Source: Anaerolinea sp. (GTDB taxonomy: Bacteria > Chloroflexota > Anaerolineae > SpSt-313). Taken from it: a stretch of DNA of 57,967 nucleotides. Of the stretch, positions 432 through 21,070 are shown piece after piece. The stretch's first letter is position 1, and each line of letters starts with the position of its first letter. Position numbers and translations under genes: made by a program. Location of the stretch: NCBI GenBank assembly GCA_020725765.1, contig DYEI01000123.1, positions 1 to 57,967 of the forward strand, in the 5' to 3' direction. A model generated the notes under the pieces. The model searched no databases. It saw nothing but the letters and a program-made list of their open reading frames with translations, and had not been told where the DNA came from.

Positions 432-460
432 TTGACAGCGCCCGCCCGTTCGGATATAAT
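432..460 (+). promoter_or_regulatory. Sigma-70-type promoter for the tRNA-Ala / T-box / leuS transcript
   Basis: TTGACA (432-437), 17-bp spacer, TATAAT (455-460). The mature tRNA 5' end is at 475. Confidence 0.65.
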
Positions 461-474
461 CCACACTGCATGGC

Positions 475-550
475 GGGGCTGTAGCTCAGCTGGTAGAGCG
501 CGTCAATCGCACTGATGAGGTCAGGGGTTCGAGTCCCCTCAGCTCCACCA
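475..550 (+). tRNA. tRNA-Ala (anticodon CGC), CCA encoded
   Basis: Manual cloverleaf: acceptor GGGGCTG/CAGCTCC with G3:U70, D arm GCTC/GAGC, anticodon stem CGTCA/TGATG, loop ATCGCAC (CGC at 508-510), T arm AGGGG-TTCGAGT-CCCCT, discriminator A, CCA at 548-550. Confidence 0.93.
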
Positions 551-760
551 CCTACACGCAACGACGCCGATCGGGAGCAGTAGGCCATCCCCGCAGAGAG
601 CCCGGCAACAGGCCGGAGCCAGGGGCGCCGGAGGTGAGAGCCGGGCAGCGCCCAGGGGAGCGCGTCAGGCCGAACTCGCCCGGGAGTCGCGGTGGCGAAC
701 AGCAGTAGTCACCGCCGGTCGCACCGTTATCTGCCGAGAGTGGGCAGGGTCCACACTCGT

Positions 761-834
761 GGGGCTGTAGCTCAGTTGGCTAGAGCGCCTCAATGGCATT
801 GAGGAGGTCAGGGGTTCGACTCCCCTCAGCTCCA
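761..834 (+). tRNA. tRNA-Ala (anticodon GGC), CCA not encoded, nested inside the T-box leader
   Basis: Manual cloverleaf: acceptor GGGGCTG/CAGCTCC with G3:U70, D arm GCTC-AGTTGGCTA-GAGC, anticodon stem CCTCA/TGAGG, loop ATGGCAT (GGC at 795-797), T arm AGGGG-TTCGACT-CCCCT, discriminator A834, followed by CCT. Confidence 0.92.
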
Positions 835-874
835 CCTTCACTCAACCCTGCCAAGCGGGGTGGTACCGCGGAGA

Positions 875-908
875 AGTCCTTCGTCCCCAAGGGGCGAAGG
901 ACTTTTTC
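875..908 (+). terminator. Intrinsic terminator (T-box terminator helix)
   Basis: AGTCCTTCG(T)CCCC AA GGGGCGAAGGACT followed by TTTTT. Its 5' arm overlaps the sequence just 3' of the T-box core. Confidence 0.85.
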
Positions 909-1013
909 GATTCTCCGCTGCGCCGGAGAGGACGGCGCACTGCCGACGCGGACCTGCAGTCCGCCCGAGCCCGCATCCGTGGGCAGCAAGCGCCCATCGA
1001 GGAGGCGCCGAAC

Positions 1014-3470
1014 ATGCAGCAGGAGCCATACGATCCCTGGGACATCGAGCCCAAGTGGCAGCGCATCTGGGCCCAGACCGGTATCTATCGGGTGGACCTC
1101 TTGCGCGCCCGGCGGCCCTTCTACAACCTCACCGAGTTCCCCTACCCCTCGGCCGAGGCGCTGCACGTCGGACACGTCTACACCTACTGCGGCGCCGATA
1201 CCTACGGCCGGTACCGCCGCATGCTCGGCGACGACGTCTTTCAGCCGACCGGGTTCGACGCCTTTGGCATTCACTCCGAAAACTATGCCCTGCACGTCGG
1301 GCGCCACCCCATGGAGCTCACCGTCGAGAACACTGCCCGCTACCGACGGCAGATGGAGGAGCTCGGCACGCTCTTCGACTGGACCTACGCCGTCGACACC
1401 AGCCGCCCCGAGTACTATCGCTGGACGCAGTGGATCTTTCTGCAGCTCTACAAAGCAGGCCTCGCCTACCGCGCCCGCGCGCCGGTGAACTGGTGCCCGA
1501 CCTGCCTCACCGTCCTGGCCAACGAGCAGGTCATCGGCGGGCTGTGCGAGCGCTGCGATTCCACGGTGGTCCAGCAGGAGATGGAGCAGTGGTTCCTGCG
1601 CATCACCGCCTACGCCGACCGGCTGCTCGCCGGCCATGCCGAGGCCGACTTTCCCGAGGTCACCGTCACCCTGCAACGCAACTGGATCGGGCGGAGCGAA
1701 GGCGCCGAGATCGTCTTCCGGGCAGTGAACGGACCCGACATCCCGGTCTTCACCACCCGGCCCGACACTCTGTTCGGCGCGACCTACCTGGTGCTCGCCC
1801 CCGAGCACCCTGCGGTCGCCGCGGTCAGCACCCCCGAGCAGGCGCCACTGGTCGAGGCCTATGCGGCGCAGGCGCGCACCAAACGCGAGCTGGAGCGGGT
1901 GGCTGCGGAGCGGGAAAAGACTGGCGTCTCTACCGGCGGCGAGGCCATCAACCCGGCTACCGGCGAGCGCATCCCCATCTGGGTGGCCGACTATGTCCTC
2001 ATGGGGTACGGCACCGGGGCGATCATGGCCGTCCCCGCCCATGACGAGCGAGACTATGCCTTTGCCCGGGCCCATGGCCTGCCGATCCGCGTGGTCGTCG
2101 CCCCGCCCGGCTGGCAGGGAGAGCCCCTCGAGGCGGCATACACCGGGGAAGGGACCCTCGTCAACTCGGGCCCGTTCGACGGCATGCCTTCCGAAGAGGC
2201 GCGCGCCGCCATCACCCGGTGGCTGGCCGAGCGCGGACAGGGCCGGCCTGCCGTCACCTACCGCCTGAGGGACTGGCTCATCTCCCGGCAGCGCTACTGG
2301 GGGCCACCGATCCCCATCATCTACTGCGACCGCTGCGGGATCGTCCCGGTTCCCGAGGAGGACCTCCCGGTGCGCCTGCCCTATGTGCGCGACTTTCGGC
2401 CCAAAGGCACGGGCGTCTCACCGCTGGCGATGGTCCCCGAGTTCGTCAACACGAGCTGCCCGCATTGCGGCGGACCCGGCCGCCGCGAGACGGACGTGTC
2501 GGACACCTTTCTGGATTCCAGCTGGTACTTCCTGCGCTACCCCTCCGCGCACCGGCAGGACGTGCCCTTTGACCCGGAGATGACGCGCAAGTGGCTGCCG
2601 GTTGACTTGTACGCCGGCGGCATCGAGCACTCGACGCTGCACCACCTCTACGCGCGCTTTATCACCATGGCGCTGCACGACCTGGGCTACCTCGAGTTCT
2701 CCGAGCCCTTCAAAAAGCTGCGGCTCCACGGCCTGATCATCAAGGACGGGGCCAAGATGAGCAAGTCCCGCGGCAATGTCGTCAACCCCGATGAGTACGT
2801 GCACCGCTACGGGGCCGACACGCTGCGGCTATACCTGCTCTTCCTCGGGCCCTATCAGGAGGGGGGCGACTTTACCGATGCCGGCATCCGGGGGATCACC
2901 CGGTTCCTCACGCGCGTCTGGCGGCTGGTGCTCGAGAGCGCGGCCCGGGAGCCAGCGCCTGCCGCGGAAGAGCCCTACGACCCAGCCATCCTTGCGCCCA
3001 TGCACCGGGCCATCGCCACGGTGCAGGCCGATATCGAAGCGCTGCACTTTCACACGGCCATCGCCGCCATCATGAGCTACAGCAACTGGCTCACCGAGAA
3101 CCGGACCAGGCTGCCCGCTGCGGCCTGGCGGGTGGCCGTGCGCACGCTGCTCCTGCTCCTCGCGCCCCTCGCCCCCCACATCTCGGAGGAGCTGTGGGAG
3201 CGCATCGGCGAGCCGTACAGCATCCACCAGCAGCCGTGGCCGAGCTACGACCCGCGCCTGCTGGAGCGGCGGACGGTCACCCTCGTCATACAGGTAGACG
3301 GCAAAGTGCGGGACCGGGTCGAGGTCCCGGCCGGGCTGAGCGCCGGGCAGGCGCAGGAGGTCGCCCTTGCCCGCCCGCGCATCGCGAGGATCCTCGACGG
3401 GCGCAAGCTACGGGACGTCATCTACGTGCCCGACCGGCTGGTGAACCTGGTGACCGCGCCGGGCCCCTAG
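1014..3470 (+). CDS. leuS: Leucine--tRNA ligase
   Basis: 818-aa ORF with a HIGH-type motif (HVGH), KMSKS, and the overall bacterial LeuRS layout. It is preceded by a Leu-specific T-box. Confidence 0.95.
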   Translation: MQQEPYDPWDIEPKWQRIWAQTGIYRVDLLRARRPFYNLTEFPYPSAEALHVGHVYTYCGADTYGRYRRMLGDDVFQPTGFDAFGIHSENYALHVGRHPMELTVENTARYRRQMEELGTLFDWTYAVDTSRPEYYRWTQWIFLQLYKAGLAYRARAPVNWCPTCLTVLANEQVIGGLCERCDSTVVQQEMEQWFLRITAYADRLLAGHAEADFPEVTVTLQRNWIGRSEGAEIVFRAVNGPDIPVFTTRPDTLFGATYLVLAPEHPAVAAVSTPEQAPLVEAYAAQARTKRELERVAAEREKTGVSTGGEAINPATGERIPIWVADYVLMGYGTGAIMAVPAHDERDYAFARAHGLPIRVVVAPPGWQGEPLEAAYTGEGTLVNSGPFDGMPSEEARAAITRWLAERGQGRPAVTYRLRDWLISRQRYWGPPIPIIYCDRCGIVPVPEEDLPVRLPYVRDFRPKGTGVSPLAMVPEFVNTSCPHCGGPGRRETDVSDTFLDSSWYFLRYPSAHRQDVPFDPEMTRKWLPVDLYAGGIEHSTLHHLYARFITMALHDLGYLEFSEPFKKLRLHGLIIKDGAKMSKSRGNVVNPDEYVHRYGADTLRLYLLFLGPYQEGGDFTDAGIRGITRFLTRVWRLVLESAAREPAPAAEEPYDPAILAPMHRAIATVQADIEALHFHTAIAAIMSYSNWLTENRTRLPAAAWRVAVRTLLLLLAPLAPHISEELWERIGEPYSIHQQPWPSYDPRLLERRTVTLVIQVDGKVRDRVEVPAGLSAGQAQEVALARPRIARILDGRKLRDVIYVPDRLVNLVTAPGP

Positions 3471-20650: not shown

Positions 20651-21068
20651 GGGGATGACAGGTCTCGACAGGGAGGGCTGGCCCGCGATTGCAAGCCGAG
20701 GTGCCCCAACCTCGCAAATCAGGGGCAAAACCACAAGTGCCAACAGAGCACAGACTCCGGCGTACGCCTACGCCATGGCTGCCTAACGGCAGCTAGGGCG
20801 CAGACGGCGCCCGATCACCTAGCGTGATCACGCCCGCCCCGGGTGCGCCCGGCTGGCTCGGGGACGGGCGCCAGGCACAGCAGGGTGCGGCCCGTCGACG
20901 CCGATAGGCGGGCTCAAGCCGCAGGCGATGAGCCGGCGGGATCGGCTGGCCCTCCGGGAACTCGGTCGGTGGAGGTCCGGGAGGGTGAGACCCAAAACGC
21001 CGACTAAGCTTGTAGTACATCGCTGGTCGAACTTTCTGGACGCGGGTTCGATTCCCGCCATCTCCACC
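20651..21068 (+). ncRNA. ssrA: tmRNA (SsrA)
   Basis: The 5' end GGGGATGACAGGTCTCGAC pairs with the 3' end CATCTCC-A-CC (G3:U70). T arm GGACGCGGGTTCGATTCCCGCC. The tag ORF GCC AAC ... GCT GCC TAA (20739-20786) encodes ANRAQTPAYAYAMAA*. Confidence 0.92.
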
Positions 21069-21070
21069 TC

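Follow-up and report, generated by a model that had tools for sequence, protein, structure and literature searches.

Upstream of leuS in a 57,967-nucleotide (nt) contig of Anaerolinea sp. (Chloroflexota; DYEI01000123.1), analyzed here over its full length and referred to as the window, a tRNA gene lies within the predicted fold of a T-box riboswitch leader. Read along the + strand, on which the parts of this unit lie, the order is a promoter, tRNA-Ala(CGC), a Leu (CUC) T-box leader with tRNA-Ala(GGC) in its Stem III loop, and leuS. The promoter at 432–460 has the sigma-70 form TTGACA-17-TATAAT, with 12 of 12 consensus matches, and is kept in the related locus L076 (labels of this kind denote individual loci throughout). 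The first gene of the unit, tRNA-Ala(CGC) at 475–550, encodes its own CCA and was called by ARAGORN and by the Rfam tRNA model RF00005 (64.3 bits, gathering score 29). The nested tRNA-Ala(GGC) scores 66.5 bits with the same model; ARAGORN places it at 761–834 or 761–836, with a G3·U70 pair and A73 followed by CCU. A GAGGAGG ribosome-binding site (1000–1006) precedes leuS (1014–3470), an open reading frame (ORF) for a leucine–tRNA ligase that reaches 916.5 bits with TIGR00396 against a cut-off of 548. An initial annotation of the window had proposed that a complete tRNA-Ala(GGC) gene is nested in the leuS T-box at the Stem III position. Direct reading of the sequence bears out every promoter, tRNA and T-box motif coordinate on which that proposal was built, and the nesting itself holds for the window and for more than 100 homologous loci.

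The interrupted leader, assigned as a Leu-specific transcriptional T-box from RF00230 and from homologous nested leaders, runs from 558 to 909. Stem I (564–687, by cmscan alignment and sequence) contains AGCAGUA at 576–582, the AG bulge AGAGAG at 595–600 (of which cmscan aligns AGAGA) and the distal loop GGUGAGA at 633–639; the platform for the tRNA elbow, which consists of the AG bulge and the distal loop, is therefore present at the sequence level. The specifier CUC (675–677), found in GAA-CUC-G at 672–678 by sequence and cmscan, is a Leu codon and fits the downstream leuS. We considered whether the GCC that follows it (CUC-GCC) might pair with the nested GGC anticodon, and rejected this because a purine plus CC after the codon is a family-wide consensus. 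Stem II (690–714) and the Stem IIA/B region with the F-box CCGUUA at 724–729, together spanning 690–729, are placed by cmscan with high posterior probability, so both are present by model alignment, and the pseudoknot is a prediction. Next come the purine flank GAGUG (RRRNG, 738–742) and the 5′ strand of Stem III, GGCAGGG (743–749), both recovered by cmscan and by the module model described below. After an unpaired 5′ linker (750–760), presumably the leader removed by ribonuclease (RNase) P and ending in U(-1), the tRNA and an unpaired 3′ linker or tRNA trailer (835–845), the second strand of Stem III, CCCUGCC (846–852), is followed by the conserved AA (853–854), as placed by cmscan and supported by module covariation. 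The T-box core GGGGUGGUACCGCG occupies 857–870 (sequence and cmscan). Its UGGU is complementary to ACCA-3′, and tRNA-Leu carries A73. From cmscan and folding, the antiterminator (857–888) consists of helix A1 (857–860/885–888), the bulge UGGUACC (861–867) and helix A2 (868–872/880–884), and can be drawn at -8.5 kcal/mol with a G868·U884 wobble included. The intrinsic terminator hairpin (869–909, T-run at 903–907) is predicted at about -37 kcal/mol with z = -5.8. Positions 869–888 are common to the two structures, which are modeled as mutually exclusive in the usual T-box relation, the antiterminator needing tRNA to win.

When RF00230 was run on 400–1050 with an E-value threshold, a single global match was returned at 558–891, covering model positions 1–219 of 219 with 58.7 bits and an E-value of 3.4e-12. 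The T-box first called from the order of its motifs is thus also traced end to end across the insert by a covariance model, at a score below that model's gathering score. In this alignment a 96-nt insertion falls exactly in the Stem III loop, with GGCAGGG on one side and CCCUGCC on the other, and a further 58-nt insertion falls in distal Stem I.

The arrangement is not confined to the window. We searched 185,579 species, each represented by one genome, for a tRNA T-arm (GGTTCRANTCC) with the T-box core AANNNGGGTGGNACCRCG 15–45 nt further downstream, allowing any tRNA identity; the same pattern had 0 matches in 100 shuffles of the window. At least 120 matches were obtained, and all figures on nested loci given from here on are among the matches listed. 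A tRNA ends just before the core in 111 of the 120 listed matches, and ARAGORN assigns every one of them to tRNA-Ala(GGC), with no other identity found. Five further listed matches are cut at the locus edge, and three (L019, L024 and L079) have no tRNA inside and are chance matches to the pattern. By tblastn with the leucyl-tRNA synthetase (LeuRS) of the window, leuS lies downstream in 111 listed loci, always so where enough downstream sequence is available. Identity in the best segment is 37–76%, with ~45–59% typical where most of the gene is present and the lowest values coming from short fragments at locus ends. The nested architecture is conserved in at least 111 species-level genomes, from more than 100 species, and is not a one-off.

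Features of the leader recur along with the tRNA. GAA-CTC-purine stands at the specifier position in 96 of the ~106 listed loci with enough upstream sequence, other Leu codons serve as specifier in 3 more, and a hairpin with a T-run lies 3′ of the core in 103 of 111. As in the window, tRNA-Ala(CGC) is found 180–360 nt upstream in 24 listed nested loci. Among 18 diverse nested loci tested, 11 gave a full-length RF00230 match spanning the tRNA and above the gathering score (95–133 bits), and seven missed that score (L005, L008, L043, L046, L070, L076 and L120); in L011, which reaches 133 bits, the tRNA sits inside the Stem III loop GGACAAA/UUUGUC. Carriers belong to about seven phyla, as judged from record titles and NCBI taxonomy. 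They include Chloroflexota (Thermomicrobiales, Ktedonobacteria, Chloroflexia, Anaerolineae, Caldilineae and Limnocylindria), Bacillota (Syntrophomonadaceae, Desulfotomaculia-type genera and Thermoanaerobacteraceae), Armatimonadota, Ca. Sysuimicrobiota, Coprothermobacterota, Caldisericota and Atribacteria; a few metagenome-assembled genomes are labeled otherwise, and binning errors are possible. The comparison of orthologous leaders, which could have marked the insert as lineage-specific, instead finds it conserved across these phyla.

In some carriers another gene stands between the nested T-box and leuS. Eight loci (L016, L036, L060, L065, L066, L070, L089 and L113), from Armatimonadota, Sysuimicrobiota and Anaerolineae, have a ~310-amino acid branched-chain aminotransferase-like gene with a HYGSSVFEGIRAY motif, several of them without an obvious terminator. 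In three Desulfotomaculia-type loci (L030, L073 and L112) the same place is taken by a ~555-amino acid ORF that looks by eye like an AMP-dependent ligase.

Whether the tRNA is enclosed by the T-box fold was addressed with a covariance model of our own, the module model, which joins the Stem III base, the tRNA cloverleaf and the antiterminator (147 positions, 35 pairs). It gave exactly one full-length match in each of 100 sources (90–156 bits), once second full-length matches in L097, L041, L028 and L005 had been recognized as the upstream tRNA-Ala(CGC) to which flanks had been forced, and not as further T-boxes; in the window it matched 738–893 with 121.4 bits. In the resulting alignment 98.0% of cells are standard pairs, as against 81% when shuffled and ~50% with partners slid. 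The Stem III base helix around the tRNA is 89% paired, with changes on both sides at 5 of 5 pairs and up to six pair types at each; one such position is AU in 38 loci, GC in 28, GU in 8, UA in 8, CG in 5 and UG in 3. Helices of the nested tRNA are 98–100% paired with many compensatory changes in the same alignment, G3·U70 being present in 100 of 100, and those of the antiterminator are 97.5–99.8% paired over the 100 loci. Because an alignment fitted to a model leans to structure, we also ran an ungapped test anchored only on RRRNG and AA. The share of loci in which five or more of the six Stem III pairs form is 70%, compared with 23% when 3′ strands are swapped between loci, and 46 distinct Stem III helices were counted. 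An unconstrained RNAduplex comparison of own and swapped flanks separated them weakly (-11.4 versus -9.2 kcal/mol, p = 4e-5) and was replaced by the anchored and covariance tests.

These data bear on several pairings put forward in the initial annotation. The helix of GGCAGGG with CCCUGCC closing around the tRNA is supported by the cmscan alignment and by the covariation at all five pairs. The idea that the acceptor stem of the tRNA substitutes for the Stem III helix does not hold, as a separate, covarying base helix of 5–7 base pairs is kept with its RRRNG and AA flanks, distinct from the acceptor stem and joined to it by unpaired linkers whose median lengths over 100 loci are 6 nt (5′) and 11 nt (3′). 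Nor is the alternative pairing of GGCAGGG with CTGCC at 731–735 conserved in the two closest relatives, L076 and L121; it is probably due to chance. Of Stem III, only the termini, in the motif 5′-RRRxG-Stem III-AA-3′, contribute to the discriminator (PMC11404447, PMC7778990). An insertion there can be tolerated because only these termini matter for T-box function, and the freedom in Stem III length and loop explains how a self-folding tRNA can sit there.

The guest has the marks of a tRNA gene. G3·U70 and A73 are present in 112 of 112 copies (the 111 listed and the window), which comprise 75 distinct tRNA sequences, and the GGC anticodon is found in all 111 listed tRNAs and in the window. CCA is encoded in 88 of the 112 copies (79%) and is not a requirement for bacterial tRNA genes; the window copy ends in CCU, and its terminal A must therefore be added post-transcriptionally. 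U occupies position -1 in 71 of 100 loci, compared with ~23% T across the remaining linker, and a U before G1 is a known preference of bacterial RNase P. Together with the single-stranded linkers, this U(-1) is an indirect sign that the nested tRNA-Ala(GGC) may be processed to a mature, aminoacylated form. The codon it reads, GCC, is the commonest in the leuS of the window (52 of 818), and the nested tRNA would therefore be in heavy demand.

Promoters and terminators are placed as expected for one transcription unit. The promoter at 432–460 is the only promoter-like site within 1–1200, and remains the only one on the + strand of 400–1050 when the threshold is loosened to 8 of 12 matches, which agrees with the one promoter first proposed; these scans detect sigma-70 consensus-like sites only. 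In 98 loci, promoter-like sites (at least 10 of 12) cluster immediately before Stem I, 150–250 nt upstream of the nested tRNA, or 300–400 nt upstream of it where there is an upstream tRNA. Only two of these sites fall within the final 50 nt before the tRNA, and two fall downstream. From the architecture we infer a single transcription unit in which the T-box terminator doubles as that of a tRNA-Ala operon. The single promoter and the shared terminator have good support; the latter was among the consequences drawn in the initial annotation.

Taken together, anatomy, conservation, covariation and the placement of promoters and terminators point to co-transcription, tRNA processing, a functional tRNA and antitermination dependent on tRNA-Leu. 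The most economical reading is a tRNA operon with a T-box attenuator as its terminator, from which leuS would be expressed by conditional read-through. A single strong promoter would give a single primary transcript running through both tRNAs, the T-box and the terminator into leuS. The nested tRNA would fold by itself and the short Stem III base helix would close around it, leaving the Stem III base, its RRRNG and AA flanks and the antiterminator to act as a normal discriminator. With tRNA-Leu charged, the T-box terminator would halt transcription and would therefore also terminate the two-tRNA operon, while uncharged tRNA-Leu(GAG) bound to the specifier and to the UGGU bulge would allow read-through to leuS. 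Both tRNAs would be made constitutively, RNase P cutting their 5′ ends whatever the state of the switch. Their 3′ ends would be formed by RNase Z and the CCA-adding enzyme on the CCU-ended copy, and by trimming where CCA is encoded.

In agreement with the impression recorded in the initial annotation, full-text literature searches turned up no account of a T-box with a tRNA gene inside it; they did not cover two major comparative T-box surveys, where a prior mention is possible. The T-box itself is of a known kind. It shares with canonical transcriptional T-boxes (RF00230; B. subtilis tyrS, glyQS and leuS) the Stem I specifier, AG bulge and distal loop, Stem II, Stem IIA/B with its F-box, the RRRNG/AA-flanked Stem III, the UGGN bulge, the competition of antiterminator and terminator, and a specifier-matched synthetase gene. 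In the canonical form, however, the Stem III loop is a few nt long, whereas here it holds a complete non-cognate tRNA gene with processing linkers (96 nt), and in the window another tRNA of the same unit stands ahead of the leader. What seems new is a bona fide T-box hosting a conserved guest gene. In rRNA operon spacers and in E. coli tyrU-tufB, RNase P and 3′ processing free tRNAs from a longer transcript with a second product, and there too long-range helices of the host RNA close around the tRNA. Those hosts are not regulatory switches, and their tRNA does not lie between the sensing and decision domains of an attenuator. GOLLD RNA likewise holds a complete tRNA within a larger structured non-coding RNA (PMC12990946), but it is a large RNA of unknown function, often phage-associated, in which tRNA identity varies; here the host is a riboswitch sensing another tRNA, and the guest in the listed loci is always tRNA-Ala(GGC). 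Two T-box leaders come close in other respects. The S. aureus metICFE-mdh leader also contains a large structured insert, located in the linker region ahead of the T-box core, and is cut from its mRNA by an RNase (PMC7913692), although its 150-nt insert contains no gene, the RNase III cut is in the terminator, and it belongs to one lineage, while the nested-tRNA arrangement spans several phyla. The leaders of B. subtilis thrS and thrZ are similarly cut 5′ of the terminator, leaving the hairpin near the mRNA 5′ end (PMC3997798), although the enzymes are RNase J1/Y acting at an AU-rich site and not tRNA-processing enzymes acting at an embedded tRNA.

By LeuRS, the nearest relatives of the window are L076, L046 and L121. 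L076, the closest genomic relative (76% LeuRS identity), conserves the promoter, both tRNAs, the T-box motifs and the terminator, whereas the 5′ untranslated region beyond the terminator is not conserved. We also compared 80 metagenomic relatives, which were picked by LeuRS alone and are therefore unbiased as to the leader. Most of them have no T-box core upstream of leuS, and Rfam found no T-box in the 20 of these that were checked. Five are nested (L145, L158, L174, L146 and L121, the last with a decayed core), and four have a T-box core without a tRNA (L159, L168, L189 and L175). L189 is a canonical, tRNA-free leuS T-box of 219 nt (132 bits with Rfam); the other three are called from the core motif only and did not reach the gathering score. 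In a LeuRS neighbor-joining tree, the nested loci form several blocks interleaved with T-box-less ones, a pattern compatible equally with an old origin followed by repeated loss and with horizontal spread.

L175 presents the same genes as the window in un-nested form (1306–2486): tRNA-Ala(CGC), tRNA-Ala(GGC), a hairpin, a TATAAT -10 box and then, by eye, a complete-looking CUC T-box with a plain short Stem III, AAGUG-ACGUUC...GAACGU-AA. This layout may be the ancestral or a derived state. A tRNA-Ala gene also lies within ~1 kilobase of leuS, on either strand and with no T-box core, in L150, L152, L156, L164, L165, L167, L176, L180 and L195; it is the GGC isoacceptor in all except L164 (CGC). 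The linkage of tRNA-Ala to leuS thus seems wider than the T-box, and these loci may be remnants of nested T-boxes or may reflect older synteny.

We place at roughly three in four the probability that the window leader is a functional Leu (CUC) T-box carrying a genuine tRNA-Ala(GGC) gene in the apical loop of Stem III, the whole forming a single transcription unit. Several observations weigh against it. At its gathering score, RF00230 reports no T-box anywhere in the window (58.7 versus 93 bits); that score is an operational threshold, not a structural feature, and the shortfall is accompanied by the 58-nt and 96-nt insertions and a 17.4-bit composition bias. The module alignment was fitted to its own model and is hence biased to structure. 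Minimum free energy folding of the window favors local hairpins, the enclosing helix having to be forced at a cost of 3.5 kcal/mol; applied to 551–915 and 736–860 it returned neither the T-box fold nor the enclosing helix, and was dropped as a test because energy-based folding cannot be relied on for long leaders rich in G+C. The case for the helix is instead made by the covariance models and comparative data. ARAGORN found no tRNA-Leu gene in the window, and the match of the cognate tRNA-Leu(GAG) to specifier and discriminator is a prediction for this genome. Lastly, in L121 (positions 1–236), which at 74% LeuRS identity is the closest of the metagenomic relatives, the nested tRNA, both Stem III strands and the terminator are retained, yet the T-box core is mutated (GGGUGAUACCUGU) and the 3′ strand of the antiterminator is lost; this is either a decaying T-box or a sequence error, and a degenerate core beside a retained tRNA and terminator suggests that the T-box half can decay. 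The low Rfam score and the mutated L121 core, as well as the restriction of the promoter scans to sigma-70 consensus-like sites, would suit a relic, with the tRNA stranded in a dead T-box, or a set of independently transcribed pieces whose nesting has no function here. We regard this as very improbable, since the T-box elements of the window are all intact (the UGGU, the G·U wobble, the AA and RRRNG flanks and the alternative terminator and antiterminator), the leader is conserved relative to L076 where the untranslated region beyond it is not, Stem III and the antiterminator covary or are conserved over 100 loci, and the gap of only ~30 nt from Stem IIA/B to the tRNA is filled with conserved T-box sequence. 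Least probable of all is a structural mimic, a cloverleaf that would never be matured and would serve, as an enlarged Stem III, for a folding scaffold or a dock for proteins such as RNase P, EF-Tu or alanyl-tRNA synthetase. Stem III is free to vary in length and sequence (PMC11404447), big structured inserts are known from other T-boxes, such as the 150 nt of the S. aureus met leader (PMC7913692), and tRNA-like modules are known inside larger RNAs, among them the tRNA embedded in GOLLD RNA, which has been proposed to be kept from maturing (PMC12990946). A scaffold, however, needs no full tRNA-Ala identity set, whereas GGC, G3·U70 and A73 are universal in the listed copies, with CCA in 79% and U(-1) in 71%. 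The stems are also maintained by compensatory changes over 75 distinct sequences, the linkers are unpaired on both sides so that there is no continuous helix, and GCC is the commonest leuS codon, which means that the organism needs tRNA-Ala(GGC).

A functional T-box with a genuine tRNA gene inside it, our preferred reading, could be extended to a regulatory coupling in which excision of the nested tRNA is part of leuS control, as the initial annotation had also suggested. Cleavage by RNase P and RNase Z would part the tRNA-Leu-binding Stem I from the discriminator and the mRNA, with the leader released or turned over, and would give leuS mRNA a new 5′-monophosphate end ahead of the terminator hairpin, altering its stability; alternatively, the extra ~96 nt might act as a timer, allowing more time for tRNA-Leu binding before the termination decision. 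The strict association of tRNA-Ala(GGC) with leuS across about seven phyla, always in the Stem III loop among listed loci, speaks for such a role, and the U(-1) enrichment and unpaired linkers have the appearance of cleavage sites maintained inside the leader. Precedent exists in the cutting of the thrS and thrZ leaders upstream of their terminators by RNase J1/Y (PMC3997798) and in the RNase III cut in the S. aureus met T-box terminator, which frees the leader and starts mRNA decay (PMC7913692); by analogy, it is plausible that excision tunes leader turnover or leuS mRNA stability. Transcription of the ~70 nt from the tRNA 3′ end to the terminator U-tract, though, probably takes ~1 s by our own estimate, so processing would mostly come after the termination decision. 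Related leuS T-boxes moreover do without the tRNA (L189, with 132 bits over 219 nt, and L175, with its plain Stem III by eye), and the same tRNA adjoins leuS in T-box-less lineages, as fits linkage by descent and not mechanism. We therefore consider coupling rather unlikely. Doubtful too is the broadest version, according to which the leuS T-box of a broad set of Terrabacteria (Chloroflexota, many Clostridia-type Bacillota, Armatimonadota, Sysuimicrobiota, Coprothermobacterota, Caldisericota and Atribacterota) would be an ancient dual-purpose RNA, its abundant terminated leader the obligatory precursor of a major tRNA and excision by RNase P and RNase Z splitting sensor from switch. If so, excision would govern how the leader is turned over, when bound tRNA-Leu is released, where leuS mRNA begins and how stable it is, and this would be the first gene housed in a riboswitch and the first case of tRNA processing wired into riboswitch output.

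The nested loci indicate that a riboswitch can carry a working-looking gene inside its own fold, and that the T-box discriminator tolerates a structured Stem III insert of 75–100 nt, a point of use in engineering and structural modeling. The terminated T-box leader, usually seen as waste, would here supply a tRNA that is in heavy use, with leuS as an optional extension of the tRNA operon reached by read-through. With presumed cleavage sites for RNase P and RNase Z lying between the domains for sensing and decision, these leaders would offer a natural system for studying processing versus co-transcriptional switching. There is also a consequence for annotation. Because the Rfam threshold misses the T-box in the window and in seven of 18 carriers, routine annotation shows a lone tRNA before leuS; more generally, standard annotation either overlooks the T-box, as in G+C-rich carriers such as the window, or yields a T-box feature and a tRNA feature that overlap. 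Some carriers are in culture (among them Thermosyntropha lipolytica, Desulfotruncus alcoholivorax, Desulfofundulus thermosubterraneus, Desulfitispora alkaliphila, Tengunoibacter tsumagoiensis and Dictyobacter alpinus), and the predictions are therefore directly testable.

Two further features of the window were recorded. Just 5′ of the promoter, a terminator-like hairpin (265–298, with a T-run) is flanked by two near-perfect G+C-rich inverted repeats at 15–57 and 311–357, with arms of ~19 and 22 nt. Far downstream, at 20651–21069, lies a transfer-messenger RNA gene (146 bits with Rfam) with the tag peptide ANRAQTPAYAYAMAA.

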